Assembly: GCA_026129095.1 (NCBI GenBank)
Contig: JAHCIT010000008.1
Span: forward strand, 188,374-208,373
DNA from: Deltaproteobacteria bacterium
GTDB lineage: Bacteria > JAGRBM01 > JAHCIT01
Direction: 5' to 3'
DNA: 20,000 nt
A model generated the notes under the pieces. It searched no databases, was not told the origin of the DNA, and worked only from the letters and a program-made list of their open reading frames with translations. Within the stretch, counting starts at the first letter, position 1; each line of letters starts with the position of its first letter. Position numbers and translations under genes: made by a program. This document shows positions 3,601 through 18,236 of the stretch, one piece after another.

Positions 3601-4085
3601 CGAGAACGGATCTCCTTGTACCGGTCGATCAGCTCGCGGTTGATGCGGTCGAGGTGCTGGTCGAACCGGCGGGCGAGGTCCGTGTCATGTTTCGCCAGCA
3701 CACCGAGCACCGTGTCGAGGACTTCCCTGGAGATGCCGAGAAAATCGACGCTCCGGTCCACGCGCTGGAGAACTCCGTTCAGCTTTGCGATCCGGTCGAT
3801 CAGCGTCATGAGCCGCTCGCCGGTGTCACCGGCCGAGGCGTCCCGCTCCATTTCCGTGACCAGCACGGCGAGGGTCGCCTGGATTTTTTCGGACACGTTG
3901 ACGCTGGAGGCGATGCGGGTCTTCCGGAGGTCGTCCCACTTTTCGGCGTCACGCCACTTCCGGAGCGTGACCTCCGAAACGCCGGTGAGGTCCGCGATTT
4001 CGGAGAGCGGTTTCCCATCGTCCACATAGAAGGTGCGGGCCTTCGCTCCGGACTCCAGGTATTTGGGCCCGTTCTGGTAACTCAT
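3597..4085 (-). CDS. Putative terminase small subunit (DUF1804/Mu gp27-like HTH protein)
   Basis: ATG 4085 (MSYQNG) with GGAGGG SD; HTH LSEIADLTGVSEVTLRKWRDAEKWDDLR; coupled to the large terminase. Confidence 0.8.
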   Translation of the reverse strand: MSYQNGPKYLESGAKARTFYVDDGKPLSEIADLTGVSEVTLRKWRDAEKWDDLRKTRIASSVNVSEKIQATLAVLVTEMERDASAGDTGERLMTLIDRIAKLNGVLQRVDRSVDFLGISREVLDTVLGVLAKHDTDLARRFDQHLDRINRELIDRYKEIRSR

Positions 4086-4136
4086 CCGCCCTCCGGAGCC
4101 GCCGCGCAATCCGGCGAAGAAGCCCGTTCAGGGCGT

Positions 4137-4583
4137 TCAGGAACACCTGGAGCCGGTCCGGACGATGGCTGGCCCGTCCCCGACTGTTCCGGGCTCCAGG
4201 ACTGGGGATTCCGGCCGGATGCGGCAGCGGTCCTCGCAGGTGCGAAGGCAGTCCTCGCCGCAGGATTTCAGGCAGGGCCCATCGTAACGGCTGGCGCAGG
4301 CAGCGGGCGTGAGCCCGAGTCCGAGCGCGAACACCAGCGCCACCGAGCGGATCCGGACGTTCCGCTTCATCTGGTCCAGGAGCGGCGCGAGGTTGCCGGG
4401 CAGCGCGGCCCGGAAGGTAGCGATGCCGATGCCTTCGAGGGCCTGGGTCATTTCGGCGGAGGTGAAGATGTCGAGGGCCCCGGCGTGGTCTCCCATGAGC
4501 AGCTTCGTCACTGCCTGGAGTAAAACCAGCAGGGCCACGAGGTAGGTCCGGTATCCGGATCCGAGAGTCAGCAGTTTCAGCAC
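4137..4583 (-). CDS. Holin-like membrane protein with Cys-rich C-terminal extension (lysis cassette)
   Basis: 148 aa, GTG start with AAGGAG SD; hydrophobic segments GYRTYLVALLVLLQAV and SVALVFALGLGLTPAAC; lies between endolysin and terminase. Confidence 0.55.
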   Translation of the reverse strand: MLKLLTLGSGYRTYLVALLVLLQAVTKLLMGDHAGALDIFTSAEMTQALEGIGIATFRAALPGNLAPLLDQMKRNVRIRSVALVFALGLGLTPAACASRYDGPCLKSCGEDCLRTCEDRCRIRPESPVLEPGTVGDGPAIVRTGSRCS

Positions 4584-4600
4584 GGGGTTCTCCTTCGTGG

Positions 4601-5044
4601 TTAATGCCGTTCCGGCGGCCGGAACGGCGGTCGGACCTGGATGTGGATGTGGGCGCCCTGGCCGACATCGTGATAAAGCGCGGTGGGGTAGCGGGCGGCG
4701 GGGGAGCCGAACGGCGCGTACGGGAACTCGCGGTTCAGCTTCGTGACGAGGCTTTTGATGGTGGCGGCGTCCAGGTCACGTGTGCGGATGTCCACGGCCC
4801 GGCCGTCCTCGTGCGGCGACTTCACGGGTTCCTGCCGCCCGAGGCGGATCGCCTCGGCGCGGTATCGCGCCTGAGTCTCCGCGTCACGGAAAACGCAGGT
4901 GATCGTGAGGGTCTTGCCGCGCTCGCTTAAGTATTCGGCGGCGGCGCGAATGACAGGCTGCAGCCGCACGTCGGCCCGGAAGAGCTGGTCCTCCAGCTCC
5001 GGGACCTTGAACGCAATCGTGAACTTGGGCGCGGCACCGGCCAT
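4601..5044 (-). CDS. Endolysin, peptidase M15 (Hedgehog/DD-peptidase fold)
   Basis: 147 aa; ITCVFRD...Q, SPHEDGRAVDI (SxHxxGxAxD) and HIHIQ Zn-ligand motifs; first gene of the late operon. Confidence 0.82.
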   Translation of the reverse strand: MAGAAPKFTIAFKVPELEDQLFRADVRLQPVIRAAAEYLSERGKTLTITCVFRDAETQARYRAEAIRLGRQEPVKSPHEDGRAVDIRTRDLDAATIKSLVTKLNREFPYAPFGSPAARYPTALYHDVGQGAHIHIQVRPPFRPPERH

Positions 5045-5130
5045 GCCGCGAGGTTACGGACGGGCGGTTCCGGTTTGCGGGACTAGGGGTTGAGCCGGGG
5101 ACGTTCTAGTGGTGGAGTTTGCGGGCGTTG
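5045..5130 (-). promoter_or_regulatory. Putative late promoter (activator-dependent, probably leaderless transcript)
   Basis: Minus-strand -10-like TAACCT at 5056-5051 sits 6 nt before the endolysin ATG; no SD and no canonical -35; CCCGCAAAC occurs twice upstream (5073-5081, 5117-5125). Confidence 0.45.
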
Positions 5131-5158
5131 CCTCCCCGCAACTGCCTGATCGAGTCCA

Positions 5159-5171
5159 ATGAACTCTCCCG
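5159..5171 (+). repeat. Direct repeat B, copy 1 (ATGAACTCTCCCG)
   Basis: Exact 13-bp match to 6083-6095; both copies are preceded by TCTAGTGGT (5105-5113 and 6048-6056). Confidence 0.7.
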
Positions 5172-5191
5172 GTAGTGGGTCAGTTTGAGGA

Positions 5192-5746
5192 TTAACGGCG
5201 ATTTTTGCGCCGAGCTTCCCGCTCAGCCTTTCGTCTATCTCTGCGATCTGGTTTGTGGCCACCTGTGTTAACCGACCGCTTAGATGGGGGTTCTGGGATT
5301 ACCGGGATAATGTCGCAATATGCGCCACTGCCATCATAGATCAAACGGACAAATCGGAAAAAATCTCTCCCTAAAAGGCCATTAAATGGGCGTGGATTTG
5401 GCGGTGTGGCCATCCCAATCATCTCGGATGTAAAAGTAATTCCTCTTTTTTTGGTACCGTCCCCGACCACCAATGTGATACTCAGCAAATAGACTGGGCA
5501 GTTTTCCGGGACATGGGAGACCCCCGTCATTTCTTCAAATCGGATAGGCACAATCCCCAAAGACTCTGCAATCCCTCTGTCGATAACCGTTTTTTGTGCC
5601 CCAGTATCGACCATAAGGCGCACTTTAACGCCTCCGGCCTGGGCCGAAGCCTCCCCTGCTTGAAGGGGTCGAGTAAGAGTAACTTCTACGAGAGGCCCCT
5701 GAAGGACCAGTGAATCAGCATTGGCGCTCTGGCAACGATGCTTCAC
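5192..5746 (-). CDS. Retropepsin-like (clan AA) aspartyl protease
   Basis: 184 aa; LMVDTGAQKTVI catalytic motif and GLLGRDFF motif; basic C-terminal tail; visibly lower GC than the flanking phage genes. Confidence 0.85.
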   Translation of the reverse strand: MKHRCQSANADSLVLQGPLVEVTLTRPLQAGEASAQAGGVKVRLMVDTGAQKTVIDRGIAESLGIVPIRFEEMTGVSHVPENCPVYLLSITLVVGDGTKKRGITFTSEMIGMATPPNPRPFNGLLGRDFFRFVRLIYDGSGAYCDIIPVIPEPPSKRSVNTGGHKPDRRDRRKAEREARRKNRR

Positions 5747-6003
5747 GCGTAAGAAAGGCCGAACATTACTGCTGTGGTGACAGGTGTCGCGGCTTGTTCC
5801 ACAACGGGGCCGATAACATAGCCAGCCTCAGCCCCAAATTCTTTTAAGGCGGATTCGTAGGCGCTGCGCTCGTCATCGTGGAAGCTCTTTACCGAACCGC
5901 CGAGAAAAACCACCCATTTGCCGGGATGCGTTTTCAGGAGTTCTGGAAGCGCCTTCCTGAATTGCAGAGTTTCCTGTAAGACTTTTTCAGATGTAGTCGT
6001 CAT
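5743..6003 (-). CDS. Small DUF5678-like protein, translationally coupled to the aspartyl protease
   Basis: LPELLKTHPGKWVVFLGGSVKSFHDDERSAY pattern; stop overlaps the protease GTG (GTGA). Start ATG 6003 with GGTGG SD, or 6036. Confidence 0.7.
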   Translation of the reverse strand: MTTTSEKVLQETLQFRKALPELLKTHPGKWVVFLGGSVKSFHDDERSAYESALKEFGAEAGYVIGPVVEQAATPVTTAVMFGLSYA

Positions 6004-6082
6004 ATGGCTCACCACCGTTTTTACAATAACCATCATACGTGTCCATGTCTAGTGGTATCCCAGAAGCCCAACCAGTTCCGCG

Positions 6083-6095
6083 ATGAACTCTCCCG
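6083..6095 (+). repeat. Direct repeat B, copy 2 (ATGAACTCTCCCG)
   Basis: Exact match to 5159-5171. Confidence 0.7.
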
Positions 6096-6194
6096 CTCGC
6101 TGGACCTATGAAGAGCTTTTCGCCGCACACAGGCGAGAACCCCTCTAAACTTACTCGTCCTAATTGGTCCGCCCGAACCCCCACTAGCCTCCGG

Positions 6195-6230
6195 GTTTCA
6201 CACAGAACTCTGCGGGCGCAGTGCGTCAAA
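6195..6230 (+). repeat. Direct repeat A, copy 1 (GTTTCAC-N10-GCGGGCGCAGTGCGTCAAA)
   Basis: 19-bp exact core 6212-6230 equals 7311-7329, plus GTTTCAC at identical spacing (6195-6201 and 7294-7300). Confidence 0.85.
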
Positions 6231-6233
6231 GGT

Positions 6234-6842
6234 CTATTCGCCGGATTTCTGTGCCCGCCGGAACTCCCACGGCGGTTCAGGGCCGTCCTCGTGCCATATC
6301 CCGAGGCGGTCCGCTTTCGCAGCGGCCTCCGCCTCCTCGAGCGCCCGGTCGTCTCCCGCGTACTGCCGGTACCACCAGGCCCACCCGGAGCGCACCATCT
6401 CAATCTCCACGTCACGGCCGTCGTCGGTGGTGACGCGCCCGACGGTTCGCTGGTAGCGGTCGCGCTGCCGGGGCTCGACGATCACGGTGCCCGACGACAC
6501 CAGCGACTCCAGGAATCTCCACGCCTCCTCGCCGCCGGGCTGGCCGTCCCGGCCCCGCTTCGGCGTCTCCGGAGCATCCACTCCGCCGAGCCGAACCGTC
6601 ACGAGGATGGCGCCGGGCGGCAGGCACGCCGGCTCCACATCGAGCGTGTCTCCGTCCTTGACCTTGACTACTCGCGCCGCAAAGGACTTCGAGCCCGCCG
6701 ATACTGGCGCGTCGCAACGGCAATCCAGTGGCGCGGTCTCACTGACCGGCGCGATGCACCCCGCGAGGAGCAGGAGCGCCGCGAAGAGCGCGGTGAGCTC
6801 ACTTCGCGTGCGCGAGTCTGACGATGGCGGACGACAGCTCAT
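6234..6842 (-). CDS. Thermonuclease (staphylococcal nuclease family), predicted lipoprotein
   Basis: 202 aa; DGDT, VRLGGVDAPE, DRYQRTVG, MVRSGWAW, AEAAAKADRLGIW, PWEFR motifs; signal peptide with lipobox LLLLAGC; AAGGGG SD. Confidence 0.9.
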   Translation of the reverse strand: MSCRPPSSDSRTRSELTALFAALLLLAGCIAPVSETAPLDCRCDAPVSAGSKSFAARVVKVKDGDTLDVEPACLPPGAILVTVRLGGVDAPETPKRGRDGQPGGEEAWRFLESLVSSGTVIVEPRQRDRYQRTVGRVTTDDGRDVEIEMVRSGWAWWYRQYAGDDRALEEAEAAAKADRLGIWHEDGPEPPWEFRRAQKSGE

Positions 6843-7278
6843 CGCGGCCCCTTACCGTCTTCTCGGCCGGATCGTAATCCCACCAGAACACCGACTCGGT
6901 TCCGTTGTGCTCGACTTTCACGAAGTGTATCCAGACTGGTTTCGAGCCGGTCACACTGACGCCGGGAACCGTGTTCCGGTCAATCTCCCTCCACCCGCTC
7001 GTGACGGCGTAAACGTCCAGGATTTCCCGGAAGGTCTCCGTCCCCTGTTTCGAGGCGAGGATATTTTCCGTCGCCTGTTCGCGGGTGAGCCCGCCGGGCG
7101 CCTCCGGCCCGCACATCGCGAGCACCACGCCGATCAGGACCCCAAGCACGATGATGCCGAGGCACCCCTTGCCGAGCTTTCGACCCTGCGCTTCAAGCTC
7201 GGCCTGCTTCGCCGCCTTCTGCTCCTCGATCCGGACCCGCTCCTCGTCCCTGATCCGCTGCTCTTCTTCCGGTGTCAT
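6799..7278 (-). CDS. Single-pass membrane protein of unknown function (prophage accessory)
   Basis: ATG 7278 (MTPEEE) with GGAGGGG SD; charged N-terminus, TM segment GCLGIIVLGVLIGVVLAMC, soluble C-terminal domain; directly downstream of the repressor. Confidence 0.75.
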   Translation of the reverse strand: MTPEEEQRIRDEERVRIEEQKAAKQAELEAQGRKLGKGCLGIIVLGVLIGVVLAMCGPEAPGGLTREQATENILASKQGTETFREILDVYAVTSGWREIDRNTVPGVSVTGSKPVWIHFVKVEHNGTESVFWWDYDPAEKTVRGRDELSSAIVRLAHAK

Positions 7279-7293
7279 TGTCACCCCTCCCAC

Positions 7294-7329
7294 GTTTCAC
7301 GCGCCCCGGCGCGGGCGCAGTGCGTCAAA
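7294..7329 (+). repeat. Direct repeat A, copy 2 (overlaps the repressor stop codon)
   Basis: Matches 6195-6230; the TCA at 7325-7327 is the repressor TGA. Confidence 0.85.
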
Positions 7330-8095
7330 TCTTCCGGCCGAGCCAGACGACCCGGCCTTTCAGTTCAAACCCCCGCCCGTCGTTCTCGTCCACCTCGAAC
7401 GATTCGTACCGGGGATTGTCGCTGATAATCCGGATCTTCCCGGACGGCGTCCGCTGCAGCCGCTTTACGGACAGCGCGTCGCCTTGGCGGATGACGTAGA
7501 CGCCGCCGGAACCGACCGTCTTCTGCCGGAGATCCACGAGCAGGATGTCGCCGCCCAGGATCGCCGGCTCCATCGAATCCCCTTCGGCAGAGATCAGACG
7601 GAAATCCTCTTCCGGATTCGAAGTCCGGAGTTCGCGCCGGAGCCACTCGGTGCGGAACGCCATTTTCACGATCTCGCGCTCCTCGCCCACATCGTTTCCC
7701 GGGCCGGCGCTCGCCCGGACATTGAGCAGCGGGATGCGGGCGAAGTCGCGGGCGAACTGGACTTCATAGGCGGATGCCATTTCGGCCAGCCCGGCCTTCT
7801 TCATGGGCCGGACAGCGGAATCCTGCAGGGCGGCAGTATCGTCCGACAGCTCTTCTCGGAATGCCGCCTTCACCAGTTCGGCGGGCTTGCGAAGCATCGG
7901 CCCCTCGCCGGTCTCCAGCCATTTCAGGTTCACCCCGCGAATCGCGAGCGCGGTTGAAACGAGTGTCTTTGGGGCTTCGCTGACGTCGTTTTCCCAAGCC
8001 GAGACGGTCTTTTGCGACACCCCTAGGACCTGGCTCAGGTCGGCCTGAGTCAAGTCGAGTGCATCCCTTAGTGATTTCAACTGTTTACCAAACAT
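7325..8095 (-). CDS. cI: CI/LexA-type phage repressor (XRE HTH plus S24 autopeptidase)
   Basis: HTH LTQADLSQVLGVSQKTVSAWEN; Ala-Gly cleavage site SAGPG; catalytic Ser GDSMEP and Lys VKRL. Start ATG 8095 (alternative 8122). Confidence 0.93.
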   Translation of the reverse strand: MFGKQLKSLRDALDLTQADLSQVLGVSQKTVSAWENDVSEAPKTLVSTALAIRGVNLKWLETGEGPMLRKPAELVKAAFREELSDDTAALQDSAVRPMKKAGLAEMASAYEVQFARDFARIPLLNVRASAGPGNDVGEEREIVKMAFRTEWLRRELRTSNPEEDFRLISAEGDSMEPAILGGDILLVDLRQKTVGSGGVYVIRQGDALSVKRLQRTPSGKIRIISDNPRYESFEVDENDGRGFELKGRVVWLGRKI

Positions 8096-8153
8096 TGGTA
8101 AAATATCTTGACTTAATACCATAATCAGGTATTACTCATACCATAATATGGAA
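8084..8153. promoter_or_regulatory. Lysis/lysogeny switch: three operators TACC-N7-GGTA and divergent promoters
   Basis: O1 TTTACCAA-ACA-TTGGTAAA (8084-8102), O2 TAATACC-N7-GGTATTA (8114-8134), O3 TACC-N7-GGAA (8139-8153); TTGACT -35-like hexamer at 8108-8113; AT-rich. Confidence 0.8.
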
Positions 8154-11893: not shown

Positions 11894-13567
11894 ATGAAGA
11901 AGGATCTGATCGGGGAGCTGGTGAAAGTGCTGGAAACGACACCACGAGGAGAACGAAACCTGAAGGTCGCGGAGTATGCCCGCGTTCTCGGCGTCTCGGA
12001 GCGCACGCTCCACCGGCGTCTCGCCGCACACCGCATGGCGCAAGACCCATCCCGGACGGCGCGGCGCAAGACCCGCGCCGACAGCGGCACGAGCCGGGCG
12101 ACCGCCGCCGAGATCGAAGCGGTGGCGGCCATCCAGCACATCGCGCGGGACCGGAGCCGCTCGCCGCTCGCACCGGGCGGGGGCCGGAGACTCCCCATGA
12201 CGGTGGCGATCGACACCGCGAGGGCCTCCGGATTCCTCGCGTCGGACCTCTCGGACCAGCGCCTCGCCCAGCTCGCCCGGTCACTCGGCTACCGGGCTCC
12301 GGAGCCGGTCCGCCGGTTCCAGGCTGGCCGTGCCAACGACGTGCACCAGCTCGACTACTCGGGCTCGTCCTGCTTCGCCTTCGCCGGTTTCGCGGACGAC
12401 GGCGTGCCGCTCGTCCGGGTGCGGGGCAGCGCCCTCGAGCGCTACAACGCCGCAAAAGACGGAGCGGAGCCGGTAGACCCGCGCCGCGTGTGGATACTCG
12501 CCTGGGTGGACGACCACTCCGGCGCGGCGTTCAGCGCCTACTTCGTCTCCCCCGGCGAGGAGACGGCGGTGATCCTGTCCACGCTGCTCGATTCCTGGAC
12601 CGGACGGCACGGGCACCAGTCGGTGCCGTTCGGCATGCCGCGTTTCCTCTACGTGGACCAGGGCCCGGCCCACAAGAGCGAGCTGTTCCGCAGCTGCCTC
12701 GGGGCGCTCATTCACCCCGACGGGAAACCGGTGCGGGTCATCACGACGGCGGCCGGCAACGCGCAGGCGAAAGGGAAGGTGGAGCGGCGGTTCCGCGACA
12801 TCAAGACCGCCTTCGAGGGGCGCTTCTGGCTCCAGCCGGGGAAGACCTACCGGCTGGACGAGGTGAACCGGCTGCTCCTCGCCTTCTGCGCGGAGCGGAA
12901 CGCCAGGGCCCACCGGTCGCAGGCGGATCACACCCGGTTCGCCCTCTGGCAGCGGTCGGCCCGGAGCCTCACGGTGCCGGGCCCGGATGCCTGGCTGAAC
13001 GCCTGGGAGACGGAGACCCGCCAGGTGGGCCGCGACGGCACCATCCGGTTCGGCGGCGTCGTCTACCGGGCACCCGTGGAGTTCACCGGCCGGAAGGTCA
13101 AGGTGTTCCACTCGCTCGCCGGCGAACTGTTCGCCGAGGATCCGCAGACGAAGAAATCCCATGCCTGCCCGCCGTTCGAGTTCGAGGCGTTCGGCGGCGG
13201 CAGGGGCCTCGCCGCTCCCGCCCCGCAGGCGGTGGAGCGGCTCAGGAAAGCGGTGGAGTCGCTGCGCTCGGCGGCGTTCCCGCAACCGGTTCTAGGTGAG
13301 GGCCAGCAACTCACGGTGGTGCAGATGCGTGGCAGAAAGACGGAGGCACAGGAGCGGAGACCGTTCGAGGAGGACACCTCGTTCGGATCCATCGAGGAAG
13401 CGGTGCGGTTCGTGCTCGAGGAGCTCGACCTCACGGCGGACGACGCGGGGACGGCAGCGATGGAACTGCTCCGCGAGCGGCTTGCCGAAACGGGGCTCGA
13501 CCGGGCGAAGGTCCGGGAGCTCGCGGCACAACTCAGGGACGCGCAGGCGTCCGCCGCGCAGGCCTGA
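11894..13567 (+). CDS. DDE transposase (MuA-like; rve core with Mu-transposase C-terminal domain)
   Basis: 557 aa; N-terminal HTH (ARVLGVSERTLHRRL); DDE triad in HQLDYS, YVDQG and AKGKVERRF; WVDDHS strand; C-terminal RQVGRDGTIRFGGVVY. Confidence 0.92.
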   Translation: MKKDLIGELVKVLETTPRGERNLKVAEYARVLGVSERTLHRRLAAHRMAQDPSRTARRKTRADSGTSRATAAEIEAVAAIQHIARDRSRSPLAPGGGRRLPMTVAIDTARASGFLASDLSDQRLAQLARSLGYRAPEPVRRFQAGRANDVHQLDYSGSSCFAFAGFADDGVPLVRVRGSALERYNAAKDGAEPVDPRRVWILAWVDDHSGAAFSAYFVSPGEETAVILSTLLDSWTGRHGHQSVPFGMPRFLYVDQGPAHKSELFRSCLGALIHPDGKPVRVITTAAGNAQAKGKVERRFRDIKTAFEGRFWLQPGKTYRLDEVNRLLLAFCAERNARAHRSQADHTRFALWQRSARSLTVPGPDAWLNAWETETRQVGRDGTIRFGGVVYRAPVEFTGRKVKVFHSLAGELFAEDPQTKKSHACPPFEFEAFGGGRGLAAPAPQAVERLRKAVESLRSAAFPQPVLGEGQQLTVVQMRGRKTEAQERRPFEEDTSFGSIEEAVRFVLEELDLTADDAGTAAMELLRERLAETGLDRAKVRELAAQLRDAQASAAQA

Positions 13568-16913: not shown

Positions 16914-17493
16914 AAGTGGCATACCCAGCATCATGACCCGGAGCGGCCGGTTCATCCGGTTCGATGATCCCGATCCAGACACTATCGACATCGGCGACAT
17001 CGCTCACGGGCTTTCTCACCTGTGCCGGTTCGCTGGGCACACGCGGGAGTTCTACTCTGTCGCCGAGCATTCGGTATATGTGGCGAACCTGTGCCCGCCG
17101 GAGCTGCAGCTAAGGGGCCTCTTGCACGATGCCGCCGAGGCCTATGTCGTCGATCTCCCGAAGCCACTGAAACGAATAATCCCCGAATACCGTGAAATCG
17201 AACGGAAGGTGATGGCGGCGGTCTGCCAGAGGTTCGGGCTTCCGGAAGAAGAACCTGCCACCGTGAAACGCGCGGATCTCATCATGCTCGTCACCGAGGC
17301 CCGCGACCTCTGCGGCCCAGGCTGGGAGGAGTGGGGTATCCGACAGGCCCCACTCCCGGAGCGGCTGGCGCAGCCGCTTCATCCAGAACTGGCCCGGACG
17401 CTGTTCTTGGAGAAGTTCCGCTCGCTGGCCGGTAGCGGCACGCCGGTGGTGCGCCCGCCTTTCGGCCGGATGGACGAGGAGGCGATGCGGTGA
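16900..17493 (+). CDS. HD-domain phosphohydrolase (YfdR/YfbR-like 5'-deoxynucleotidase)
   Basis: ATG 16900 with GAGGAGG SD; DIAHGLSHLCRFAGH, FYSVAEHS, LLHDAAEAYVVD, VKRADLIML. Confidence 0.88.
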   Translation: MHPTESGIPSIMTRSGRFIRFDDPDPDTIDIGDIAHGLSHLCRFAGHTREFYSVAEHSVYVANLCPPELQLRGLLHDAAEAYVVDLPKPLKRIIPEYREIERKVMAAVCQRFGLPEEEPATVKRADLIMLVTEARDLCGPGWEEWGIRQAPLPERLAQPLHPELARTLFLEKFRSLAGSGTPVVRPPFGRMDEEAMR

Positions 17494-18236
17494 GCGCGTC
17501 ATTGATAGAATGGACCGAGGAGACCTGGAACCCGCTTACGGGCTGCACAAAGATCAGCGCCGGGTGCCAGCACTGCTATGCCGAACGGATGGCGAAGCGG
17601 CTCCAAGCGATGGGTCTGGATCACTACCGGGCCGGATTCGAGTTGGCAGTGCACCCCGAGAAGCTCAACATTCCTCGCCGCTGGAAGCGGCCACGCATGG
17701 TGTTCGTGAACTCCATGAGCGATCTGTTTCACGATCGGGTGTCCGATGAGTTCATCCGTGACGTGTTCCGGGTGATGAACGAGACGCCGTGGCACACCTA
17801 CCAAGTGCTGACGAAGCGGGCGCAGCGGCTGTGGTCTCTCTCGCGCGGGCTCACCTGGACCCCTAACATCTGGATGGGAGTGAGCGTGGAGTCCCATTCC
17901 TGGCGCTCGCGTATCCGTCTCTTGAGTGACGTCGCTGCCGCCGTCCGGTTCCTCTCGTGCGAGCCGCTGCTCGGGCCGCTACCGGATATGGCCCTGCAGG
18001 GAATCCACTGGGTGATCGTGGGCGGCGAATCGGGGCCAGGAGCGCGGCCGATGCACCCCGACTGGGCCGAGAGCCTGCTGTATCAGTGTCGGGGCGCCGG
18101 AGTGCCATTCTTCATGAAACAACTAGGTGGCCACCCGGACAAGCGTGGGCAGATCGAACAGCTCCCGGCACACCTGCGCGTGCGGATGTTTCCCGGCGAC
18201 ACCTGGACGGAAACGGTGGAGCCATGCCAGCCCTGA
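17490..18236 (+). CDS. Phage Gp37/Gp68 (DUF5131) family, radical-SAM-related three-Cys protein
   Basis: 248 aa; IEWTEETWNPLTGCTKISAGCQHCYAE, FVNSMSDLFH, LTKR, FLSCEPLLG, WVIVGGESG, PFFMKQLG. Confidence 0.92.
   Translation: MSASLIEWTEETWNPLTGCTKISAGCQHCYAERMAKRLQAMGLDHYRAGFELAVHPEKLNIPRRWKRPRMVFVNSMSDLFHDRVSDEFIRDVFRVMNETPWHTYQVLTKRAQRLWSLSRGLTWTPNIWMGVSVESHSWRSRIRLLSDVAAAVRFLSCEPLLGPLPDMALQGIHWVIVGGESGPGARPMHPDWAESLLYQCRGAGVPFFMKQLGGHPDKRGQIEQLPAHLRVRMFPGDTWTETVEPCQP

Follow-up and report, generated by a model that had tools for sequence, protein, structure and literature searches.

A retropepsin-like aspartic protease and a DUF5678-type partner form a mobile two-gene cassette, a candidate toxin-antitoxin or abortive-infection module, in a Mu-like prophage

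Two overlapping genes in a Mu-like prophage of a Deltaproteobacteria bacterium, one encoding a small DUF5678-type protein and the other a retropepsin-like aspartic protease, are, judged from the comparison of homologous loci, one conserved, translationally coupled, autonomous cassette. The small protein is predicted to bind a dimer of the protease, with its core clamping one flap and its C-terminal tail filling the catalytic cleft. We tentatively read the cassette as a type II toxin-antitoxin (TA)-like or abortive-infection module in which the protease is gated by a pseudosubstrate partner, a proposal to which we give slightly less than an even chance.

The gene pair and its prophage setting

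The features of the pair and its surroundings are listed in Table 1. A sequence-only reading of the window (the whole 20,000-nucleotide stretch that was analysed) had described a lower-GC pair with a GTGA overlap, a GKWVVF protein of ~86 amino acids, and a DTG/LLGRD aspartyl protease with a very basic tail and no signal peptide. All of these hold for the DNA, the lack of a signal peptide being judged by eye only, from the N-terminus, and the length of the small protein being that given by an ATG start at 6003. The GC content of the pair is 0.517 vs 0.653 for the window, and the low-GC stretch spans ~5130 to 6230. The partner reading frame also opens at ATG 6036, which gives a protein of 97 aa (5743..6036, minus strand). 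Homologues begin at the position of Met12 of this longer frame, and the promoter-like site falls inside it, which argues for the start at 6003. An SD-like GGTGAG lies between the promoter-like site and this ATG. The cassette is present in a single copy in the source genome, and Rfam and tRNA scans of the cassette region gave no matches.

The cassette lies in a Mu-like prophage in which we found Mu portal, Mu F, MuA-like, MuB-like, and GemA genes. The earlier description of the pair as prophage cargo beside a repressor agrees with its position on the same strand as the CI/S24 repressor and two genes downstream of it. On the other side of the cassette, the M15-like peptidase opens the lysis/packaging block; from its position we take it to be a putative endolysin, and its homologues in relatives have 38-51% identity.

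The cassette is bracketed by exact copies of a 13-nt direct repeat, and two matches of this repeat were obtained in 0/200 shuffles. We rejected the repeat as the end of a mobile element because its four genomic copies share nothing past the 13 bases. A search for an unoccupied site found none, and no contig of four sequencing runs joins across the cassette. One joint, from 6352 to 7221, was found in a high-depth contig with a 23-letter side and was taken as belonging to another organism. The homologues of the M15-like peptidase (on C7 of the same genome and in relatives) were dropped as empty-site comparators because they share no other phage gene, and no relative of the terminase was found in IMG/VR.

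Table 1. Features of the cassette and its surroundings (positions are those of the window)
Feature	Position	Strand	Evidence or remark
M15-like peptidase, putative endolysin	4601..5044	-	weak Peptidase_M15_2, E 0.0093
13-nt direct repeat ATGAACTCTCCCG, downstream copy bracketing the cassette	5159..5171	+	exact
Protease gene, retropepsin-like aspartic, 184 aa, GTG start	5192..5746	-	Pfam profiles and invariant motifs
Arg/Lys-rich C-terminal tail of protease, residues 165-184, KPDRRDRRKAEREARRKNRR	5195..5254	-	outside the predicted interface
Second retropepsin motif G123-L-L-G-R-D-F129	5360..5380	-	invariant in both alignments
Flap-like segment of protease, residues 66-87, VPIRFEEMTGVSHVPENCPVYL	5486..5551	-	predicted dock for partner N-terminal helix and strand 61-65
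Catalytic motif D47-T48-G49-A50	5597..5608	-	invariant or nearly so in 16 and 28 aligned sequences
Partner gene, DUF5678-type, divergent, 86 aa	5743..6003	-	homologues start at Met12 of the longer ORF
GTGA stop/start overlap of partner and protease genes	5743..5746	-	translational coupling
Partner C-terminal tail codons QAATPVTTAVMFGLSYA, residues 70-86	5746..5796	-	residues 70-83 predicted in the protease substrate cleft
Promoter-like site TAGACA-17-TATTGT	6023..6051	-	just upstream of ATG 6003
13-nt direct repeat ATGAACTCTCCCG, upstream copy bracketing the cassette	6083..6095	+	exact
SNase gene	6234-6842		between repressor and cassette
Membrane-like ORF, 164 aa	6799-7293		between repressor and cassette
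CI/LexA-type repressor, HTH and Peptidase_S24	7325..8122	-	Peptidase_S24 E 1.2e-18; phrog_4 E 7.3e-48

The protease

By its profile matches, its catalytic motif, and its second motif, all three of which are present, the larger protein belongs to the retropepsin-like aspartic proteases (clan AA). The profile check called for by the sequence-only reading gave two Pfam matches above their cut-offs, PF13650 (33.1 bits, cut-off 24.3) and PF13975 (30.4 bits, cut-off 28.2), of the Asp_protease_2/gag-asp_proteas families. The NCBIfam clan_AA models matched weakly, at 19.8 and 13.2 bits, far under their cut-offs. In an alignment of 28 sequences, there is no variation at D47, T48, or A50 and G49 shows at least 90% conservation; P67, R69, G75, and P84 are likewise invariant in the segment that, by analogy with retropepsins, we take to be a flap (residues 66-87). 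A word search returned 17 protease homologues of 133-196 aa. By sequence, no PDB entry matched at or below E 0.1, and the weak matches above this level (E 0.14-1) were to a Ddi1-like protein, ApRick, and the FIV/HIV proteases.

A basic C-terminal tail similar to that of the window's protease is found in 12 of the 21 non-redundant relatives; 7/21 lack it, and of the other two, one stops at a contig end and the other is ambiguous. The sequence-only reading had suggested that this tail may bind nucleic acid; since it is missing from seven relatives, it cannot be essential to the core mechanism.

The partner protein

The DUF5678 model (PF18929) scores 18.8 bits on the window's partner, under its gathering cut-off of 23.2, and three close relatives pass that cut-off (28.6, 28.3, and 23.8 bits). 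The window protein thus falls outside the curated family, as a divergent relative of it, and the earlier wording "DUF5678-like" was apt. The G-K-W-V-V-F hairpin region of the core aligns with the DUF5678 model. The nearest Atlas clusters are also DUF5678 (score 0.90, 211/256 features, with the family common to 10/10 best hits), and one of them is viral. Fold matches in BFVD to DUF5678 proteins have TMq values of 0.56-0.59, the best BFVD hit has a TMq of 0.63 (E 2e-3), and the best structural neighbours are viral.

Modelled alone with AF2 (pLDDT 80.2), the partner has a helix at residues 4-25, strands at 30-34 and 37-42, a second helix at 45-56, and a strand at 63-66, followed by a low-confidence tail (residues 70-86). 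Conservation in the tail is moderate (P72 63%, P74 56%, F81 65%, G82 56%), and the final residues vary in both sequence and length among homologues. No solved structure resembling this model was found in the PDB by sequence or fold: Foldseek returned nothing at E<=1e-3, the best VIA-align Z was 4.1 (rmsd 4.9 over 71 residues), which is under the tool's meaningful level, and the sole sequence match, to a stretch of a kindlin PH domain at E 0.01, was taken as chance. Searches by Pfam, NCBIfam, and fold match found no DNA-binding domain in the partner.

Homologues of the partner numbered 6 by word search and 533 representatives at E<=1e-3. No fusions of partner and protease were found (0/172 proteins match both profiles). 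One protein, P0101, carries two partner domains in tandem.

Predicted complex

The sequence-only reading had suggested structure prediction of the pair as a complex, and the prediction supports binding. In a model of three chains (two protease copies and the partner, with their own alignments), a setup unlike the one used for the tool's calibration, the partner-protease ipSAE was 0.78, and the best of 3 controls reached 0.06. The same mark is reached by 116/157 solved complexes and by 2/215 mismatched pairs. The complex runs share at least 89% of contacts, and the partner pLDDT is at least 86.

The predicted interface holds partner residues 70-83 together with Asp47 from both protease copies, so that a single partner tail touches both catalytic residues (in the three-chain model, in which the partner alone was scored). 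The lowest-error contacts are residues 67-70, 82, 84, and 87 on the protease side and residues 5, 8, 9, 12, 15, 45, 49, and 62-65 on the partner side. In this geometry the partner grips one protomer by its flap with its core, and its tail runs into the catalytic cleft. The small protein had been proposed to gate the protease as an inhibitor, sensor, or substrate, and of these roles the predicted tail-in-cleft binding would fit the inhibitor or the substrate. The prediction may have carried over the tail-in-cleft pose from known structures of retropepsins with bound peptides, of which there are many. In a test of interface conservation, the interface residues of the partner did not exceed its other residues (1.82 vs 2.11 bits), and a charge test gave no consistent pattern of acidic antitoxin and basic toxin.

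Conservation, coupling, and expression

The stop/start overlap is kept in all of the intact homologous pairs (30/30), with an overlap of -4 in 19, -8 in 10, and -7 in 1. In essentially every related locus that has upstream sequence, the partner gene is directly upstream of the protease gene and on the same strand, and the pairing is also kept in 4/5 unrelated genomes that have only distant protease homologues. In informative pairs dN/dS is 0.06-0.43 for both genes, and the lone value near 1 comes with a dS of 0.016, so by this measure both genes are under purifying selection. The divergence of partner and protease correlates (Pearson 0.94 over 276 pairs, which are related sequences and not independent). 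The pair is more than a chance arrangement because both genes have homologues, dN/dS is low, and the pairing recurs.

An extended -10-like element, TGnTAnnnT, occurs within 60 nt upstream in 21 of the 24 non-redundant cassettes (0.66 expected), and the cassette in the window has a 1-nt variant of it. Only members of the close clade have a CACGTG palindrome adjoining the -10 element. Contigs from an RNA library match the pair, and one of them extends to 6008, which is a weak hint of cassette expression; parts of 4000-7400 that are uncovered in the library were not counted as evidence. Identical copies of the pair are present in other sequencing runs.

The catalytic half of the protease has been deleted beside an intact or nearly intact partner gene in two lineages (L003 and L025/L032), and among the related loci we saw no intact protease beside a broken partner. 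This asymmetry comes from two lineages only, and the protease gene, with twice the length of the partner gene, is also the larger target. A further locus (L004), with an apparently truncated protease, was dropped from the count because it holds a masked run of N, and four frameshifted loci (L022, L024, L027, and L041), in which both genes are broken and which come from two related metagenome series, were left out as possible assembly errors.

Distribution and genomic context of relatives

The cassette was found in none of the genomes of the five closest relatives (0/5, 83-99% complete). Most homologous pairs are in bacterial chromosomes, and several are inside the host's own restriction-modification (R-M) operons. 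In two loci (L001 and L018) the pair sits between hsdR and hsdS/hsdM, in company with DUF433, Fic, MqsA-like, and Phd/PIN genes. Other loci adjoin other R-M genes, IS21, a DUF4258/HTH pair, or an excisionase with a primase, and a distant pair has an endolysin as its neighbour on a viral contig from IMG/VR. No third gene is conserved across these contexts.

The sequence-only reading had tied its proposal to homologues in mobile or defence contexts. Neighbours of this kind (type I R-M, TA genes, or mobile DNA) occur in 10 of the 18 context groups, by our own grouping and as raw counts, and 7/18 have only ordinary or unknown neighbours; one group is uncertain. Taken together, the loci point to a cassette that is horizontally mobile and patchily distributed and that probably moves among phages, R-M islands, and other mobile DNA. 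The available text of Payne et al. (bioRxiv 10.1101/2024.01.29.577857) argues that a gene lodged within a type I R-M system is a candidate for a role in defence.

Comparison with known systems

The sequence-only reading knew of no demonstrated function for the pair, and our literature search likewise found no paper on it. Among bacterial proteases, ApRick/APRc of Rickettsia (PDB 5c9b, 5c9d, 5c9f) and RimB of Pseudomonas are likewise single-domain clan AA proteins with DTG and G-R-D motifs. According to the accessible part of its description (PMC11957791), RimB acts with partner proteins to trim the tail of a specific protein; it is part of the RimABK ribosome-modification system, with no DUF5678 partner reported there. 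The accessible accounts of APRc concern rickettsial surface proteins and also report no DUF5678 partner. The window's protease differs from both in having no signal sequence (by eye), an Arg-rich tail, and a place in a mobile two-gene cassette.

Neither of the two proteins is hit by a validated model of a defence or TA system. The nearest match is to a component of a candidate system, PDC-M08: the PADLOC model PDC-M08B matches the protease weakly and at domain level (E 5e-4, 18.1 bits) and matches 14 of the 28 protease relatives, at best with 5.3e-5. PDC-M08 calls for its A and B components on adjacent genes, and searches of the partner and 84 relatives turned up no PADLOC match, to the A component or otherwise (0/84), so that the pair shows B without A. 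According to the available text of bioRxiv 10.1101/2024.01.29.577857, the PDC systems came from cassettes that lie inside BREX, DISARM, and type I R-M systems, and several relatives of our pair are likewise embedded in type I R-M. The main text of that preprint, in its accessible part, mentions no aspartic protease.

The likeness to type II TA systems is in organization: the small gene comes first, with a stop/start overlap, an apparent promoter of its own, and a patchy, mobile distribution, and relatives of the cassette neighbour other TA genes. It extends to the predicted binding, in which the small protein places a disordered C-terminal tail in the active site of the larger one. Many type II antitoxins have disordered neutralising tails, and the tail of the partner, which is of low confidence when modelled alone, resembles these. 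Classical type II antitoxins bind DNA, whereas the window's partner is without a recognisable DNA-binding domain; not all type II antitoxins bind DNA. In the literature on retropepsins or aspartyl proteases and toxin-antitoxin systems, we came across no toxin that is an aspartic protease. The available text of Ernits et al. 2023 (PMC10440598) assigns the protease domains of TA networks to ImmA-type antitoxins.

The position of the cassette also recalls that of the lambda rex genes. In lambda, the order is cI-rexA-rexB, with lysogen-expressed exclusion genes downstream of the phage repressor. Our cassette is similarly on the same strand as, and downstream of, a CI-type repressor, and has a foreign base composition. 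It differs in that there is no sequence or fold relationship with Rex, two genes intervene, and what appears to be a separate promoter serves the cassette.

Interpretation and alternatives

Building on the conservation, coupling, promoter motif, mobile contexts, and predicted binding geometry described above, we propose the following mechanism. Both proteins would be co-produced from the cassette's own promoter with translational coupling, and the place of the cassette downstream of the repressor makes its expression in the lysogen probable. The protease would act in the cytoplasm as a homodimer, with one Asp47 per chain. The core of the partner would clamp the flap of one protomer, holding the protease in check, and its tail, disordered when alone, would lie across the pair of catalytic aspartates in the manner of a pseudosubstrate or a slowly cut substrate. 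If the partner were lost or displaced, the freed protease may cut cell or phage proteins. Such release could be set off by an infecting phage, by a shut-off of host gene expression, or by the element being lost, and would abort the infection or exact a cost for losing the prophage. The inhibition, toxicity, trigger, and targets in this scheme are what we infer. The stronger claim, that the cassette represents a new class of TA or abortive-infection system with a retroviral-type aspartic-protease toxin held by a threaded pseudosubstrate tail and a flap clamp, is possible, and we would sooner doubt it than assert it.

The predicted geometry would suit a substrate as well as an inhibitor, so the pair may instead be a processing pair with no toxin, in which the partner is a substrate or an adaptor that delivers clients, and the proteolysis is harmless and regulatory for the carrier element. 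Cleavage of the partner tail in the cleft would then free a mature protein or peptide. The variable last residues of the partner, its moderately conserved P72, P74, F81, and G82, and its want of a DNA-binding domain are consistent with this, and tail trimming with partner proteins has a precedent in RimB, as far as the accessible text goes (PMC11957791). However, no third conserved gene is there to serve as client or receiver, the promiscuous mobile and defence contexts and patchy distribution would be unusual for housekeeping, and lineages that have lost the protease yet keep the partner are unexpected if the partner exists only to be cleaved. On balance we consider such a pair unlikely.

The same cassette might also serve the phage or mobile element as a weapon or regulator, with the protease cutting host defence proteins or repressors and the partner silencing it until needed. 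Carriage by a prophage near the immunity region, the distant pair on a viral contig, the viral Atlas cluster and viral structural neighbours of the partner, and the RNA-library matches, weak as a hint of expression, all lean this way. Yet neither protein matches a PHROG family, most relatives are chromosomal, with several in the R-M operons of their hosts, and the GC content of the cassette is unlike that of the phage, which argues that it was acquired recently as cargo and is no core function of the phage; we regard this role as improbable. A structural or maturation protease of the phage would be in keeping with a location in the prophage near lysis and packaging genes, but the cassette is upstream of the lysis genes and far from the head genes, has no PHROG match, and has counterparts outside phages. 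A decaying, non-functional insert would hardly have intact frames, invariant catalytic residues, dN/dS well below 1 in relatives, and identical copies in other sequencing runs. We give these last two explanations almost no credence.

Bacterial retropepsin-like proteases have barely been studied, and in the literature we found none tied to TA or anti-phage biology. If the gated-protease interpretation is true, bacterial immunity or addiction would have in this cassette its first effector of the aspartic-protease type, together with a natural protein inhibitor design for retropepsins that is spread by phages and R-M-embedded islands. If the two proteins are instead a processing pair, they would give a first function to DUF5678, a family that is found from phages to giant viruses.

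The gene pair

The sequence-only reading described a lower-GC gene pair with a GTGA overlap, encoding an 86-aa protein and a DTG/LLGRD aspartyl protease with a basic tail, and we recovered all of these features at 5192-6003, where the GC content is 0.517, compared with 0.653 across the window (at finer resolution, GC is low from ~5130 to 6230). Both genes are on the minus strand, and the GTGA joins the GTG start of the protease gene to the stop of the small partner gene. Met12 of the longest partner ORF is the start in all partner homologues and a promoter-like site (6051-6023) falls within that longer ORF, so we take the real product to be the 86-aa form.

Positions of the features of the gene pair and of the surrounding prophage
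Feature	Position	Strand	Remarks
Protease gene	5192..5746	minus	184 aa; GTG start
Protease tail, KPDRRDRRKAEREARRKNRR	5195-5254	minus	
GLLGRDF motif of protease	5360-5380	minus	
DTGA motif of protease	5597-5608	minus	
Partner ORF, longest form	5743..6036	minus	97 aa
Partner gene, 86-aa form	start at 6003	minus	preceded by SD-like GGTGAG
SNase-family nuclease	6234-6842	minus	lipobox-like N-terminus (LLLLAGC)
164-aa ORF	6799-7293	minus	one hydrophobic segment; no family match
CI/S24 repressor	7325-8122	minus	divergent from Ner-like gene
MuA-like transposase	11894-13567		
DUF5131 (phrog_2045) gene	17490-18236		
Portal fused to Mu F (Mu-type), large terminase, DUF1804			window prophage
MuB-like ATPase, GemA, Dam-type methylase			window prophage

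The protease family assignment held, with scores above the Pfam cut-offs for both Asp_protease_2 (33.1 bits vs 24.3) and gag-asp_proteas (30.4 bits vs 28.2). The label "DUF5678-like" stood as a resemblance, but at 18.8 bits the partner misses the Pfam cut-off of 23.2, which its close relatives exceed. In the Atlas it falls closest to clusters of DUF5678 proteins (score 0.90), and among viral structure predictions it best matches small phage proteins without characterisation and DUF5678 proteins of Pandoravirus (TMq 0.56-0.63); sequence and structure comparison found no solved structure resembling it. Modelled alone from an 84-sequence alignment (pLDDT 80.2, pTM 0.64), the partner consists of a helix (4-25), a hairpin (30-42), a helix (45-56) and a strand (63-66), followed by low-confidence residues 70-86. 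Judging from profiles and models, we regard it as a divergent member of DUF5678, a family with no known function.

Conservation and decay of the pair

Word-based search returned 17 protease and 6 partner homologues, and a profile search with the partner brought up 533 cluster representatives, most of them 80-95 aa long, at E<=1e-3, and 148 at E<=1e-10. We compared 45 related loci (L001-L045) from genomes, metagenomes and IMG/VR, and in every one with upstream DNA the partner gene is directly upstream of the protease gene on the same strand; L019, L042 and L044 have no partner gene because the contig ends there. The protease gene of L004 appears truncated, but a masked N run (2262-2401) lies within it, so the truncation is not real, and its identical copies from metagenomes, L028 and L029, are intact. 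Stop and start overlap in all 30 intact pairs (-4 in 19, -8 in 10, -7 in 1), with GTG as the protease start in 27 of them. Both genes have dN/dS values of 0.06-0.43 across 24 non-redundant pairs, apart from a single outlier of 1.01 whose dS is only 0.016. Partner and protease identities covary (Pearson 0.94, Spearman 0.78; 276 comparisons), which, because the sequences are related, indicates co-inheritance and is not an independent test.

Distant protease homologues occur in 5 of the 55 unrelated genomes in a sample of 61, in four cases with the partner gene directly upstream. No partner-protease fusion was seen among 172 related proteins. The pair is single-copy in the window's genome and was not found in the five closest genomes searched (83-99% complete). 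Duplicated or orphaned partners do exist: at L045 a protease gene (3-494) is followed 55 nt later by a second partner gene (550-813) with no protease after it, and the related protein P0101 (210 aa) has two partner domains in tandem.

At L003 the partner is intact and the protease is without profile positions 1-69, including the DTG; in the related L005 neither gene is intact. At L025/L032 the protease is reduced to positions 101-187, with positions 12-84 of the partner retained. Among the related loci we saw no intact protease next to a broken partner, an asymmetry that rests on two lineages and is what toxin-antitoxin logic predicts.

Promoter and expression

Of 24 non-redundant cassettes, 21 have an extended -10-like motif, TGnTAnnnT (most often TGGTA...), at most 60 nt upstream of the partner ATG, where shuffles predict 0.66; the motif is kept between clades whose flanks are otherwise unalignable. 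In the window it differs by one base and falls on the promoter-like site. These sequences point to a promoter of the cassette's own. In a close clade (L001, L012, L013, L017 and L018), a CACGTG (or CCACGTGG) palindrome abuts the -10-like element upstream of the partner gene and is a candidate operator there; it is missing from the window's copy.

Contigs of two RNA libraries, from two studies, match the pair exactly at 5276-5581, 5692-5804, 5195-5336 and 5751-6008, which is only a weak hint of expression since DNA can occur in such libraries. Two other runs supplied DNA contigs that match the cassette exactly at both junctions, so the arrangement is not a one-sample assembly artefact.

Setting in the prophage

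By its gene content the window is a Mu-like transposable prophage with a divergent layout: the late genes (for lysis, DUF1804, terminase and the portal-Mu F fusion) extend leftward of the repressor, and the early ones (Ner-like, MuA-like, MuB-like, GemA, DUF5131, Dam methylase) extend rightward as far as the end of the contig. On its own strand the repressor is followed downstream by the 164-aa ORF, the SNase-family gene, a gap of ~200 nt, the cassette, an M15-like peptidase gene and the packaging genes, an order that places the cassette in the lysogen-side cargo region. The 164-aa ORF and the SNase gene are possibly further lysogen-expressed cargo. In lambda, rexAB occupies the same slot.

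The cassette is flanked on either side by identical 13-nt direct repeats (5159-5171 and 6083-6095), a double match that did not arise in any of 200 shuffles. Across the 3.67-Mb genome there are four copies of the 13-mer (the other two at C1:542140 and C20:92889) and none of its reversed control, and there is no similarity around the four copies beyond the 13 bases. Read on the coding strand, both window copies precede a gene start, and the repeat may be the scar of an insertion or a regulatory word that was duplicated. In two DNA runs, a contig of ~43x depth joins 6352 to 7221 with 23-letter sides ("skips 868"); we set it aside as most likely another organism's sequence.

Settings of related cassettes

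The earlier proposal of a protease-based defence or toxin-antitoxin module agrees in part with the neighbourhoods: near-identical loci, merged by hand, formed 18 context groups, of which 10 have mobile, defence or TA neighbours, 7 have ordinary or unknown ones and 1 is uncertain (L043, with a sub-threshold integrase domain), a description and not an enrichment test. The ten include the window prophage. In L001/L014/L008 the pair, accompanied by a DUF433 gene, is located between hsdR and hsdS-hsdM and adjoins Phd/PIN; L018 is an operon of this type too, here with Fic and MqsA-like genes; the pair of L011/L002 adjoins a ClpP-like SDH protease and another hsdS-hsdM-hsdR. The others have nearby an HTH-M78 protein and an R-M fusion (L012), IS21 (L020/L019), an excisionase, Prim-Pol and replication initiator (L023), a DUF4258/HTH pair (L025/L032) or a phage-type DUF5131 (L026), or lie on an IMG/VR contig with an endolysin (L006). 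Ordinary or unknown neighbours surround L017, L003/L005, L004/L028, L039/L040, L038/L042, L013 and L037. No third gene is common across the 18 groups. A DUF5131 gene, present in the window prophage, also lies directly beside the related cassette on the unrelated metagenome contig L026 (2456-3088), which may be coincidence or shared phage background.

Payne et al. (bioRxiv 10.1101/2024.01.29.577857) make the case that cassettes found inside type I R-M, BREX or DISARM systems are defence candidates, and derive the PADLOC PDC models from them. The protease matches PDC-M08B weakly (E 5e-4), as do 14 of 28 relatives; neither the partner nor any of 84 relatives has a PADLOC match.

Predicted complex

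The suggestion that the small protein gates the protease gained support from structure prediction: two protease copies and one partner, run with alignments of our own, gave the verdict "supports binding" with an ipSAE of 0.78 (runs 0.79, 0.78 and 0.77), against 0.06 for the best of three controls. Of 157 solved complexes 116 attain the ipSAE mark, as do 2 of 215 mismatched pairs, counts that apply only roughly to a run with three chains and our own alignments. The runs share at least 89% of contacts, with partner pLDDT of at least 86. Partner residues 70-83 (QAATPVTTAVMFGL) share the modelled interface with the catalytic Asp47 and positions 49-50 of each protease copy, so the partner tail is predicted to sit in the substrate cleft. 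Solved retropepsin-peptide complexes are plentiful, and the predictor could therefore have remembered this pose instead of inferring it. The lowest-error contacts are between protease residues 67-70, 82, 84 and 87, in the flap-like hairpin 66-87, and the N-terminal helix (5, 8, 9, 12, 15), residues 45 and 49 and strand 62-65 of the partner. Partner interface residues are no more conserved than the rest (1.82 vs 2.11 bits). The basic tail of the protease is outside the predicted interface and missing in 7 of 21 relatives; it is an accessory feature of the window's clade, and nucleic-acid or ribosome targeting by it is a guess.

Function and novelty

The best-supported picture, drawing on the models, is of a mobile, self-expressed cassette whose protease would be gated by its cognate partner, the tail plugging the cleft and the core clamping the flap-like hairpin. 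A toxin-antitoxin-like or abortive-infection function is the reading we favour, at a little short of an even chance. That the two genes form a harmless dedicated processing pair is rather unlikely. We consider it improbable that the pair serves the phage or element as a weapon or switch, and highly improbable that it is a structural protease or relic; part of the probability goes to none of these readings.

Our literature search found nothing on a DUF5678-retropepsin pairing or on aspartic-protease toxins, nothing joining "retropepsin-like" with "toxin-antitoxin", and no mention of PDC-M08, which the supplements of the Payne preprint, outside our search, may describe. DUF5678 was mentioned only in an unrelated plant study, and retropepsin-like proteases in connection with bacteria and phage led only to RimB and Rickettsiales. 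Among the matches listed, literature on PF13650 concerned eukaryotes or retroviruses, and "aspartyl protease" was absent from that on antitoxins and defense islands. We class the cassette with those of TA-like or defence type, although its family is unstudied; what the window adds is the phage-borne copy in a repressor-side slot, the copies within R-M operons, a promoter and an overlap that are conserved, and the predicted tail-in-cleft geometry.
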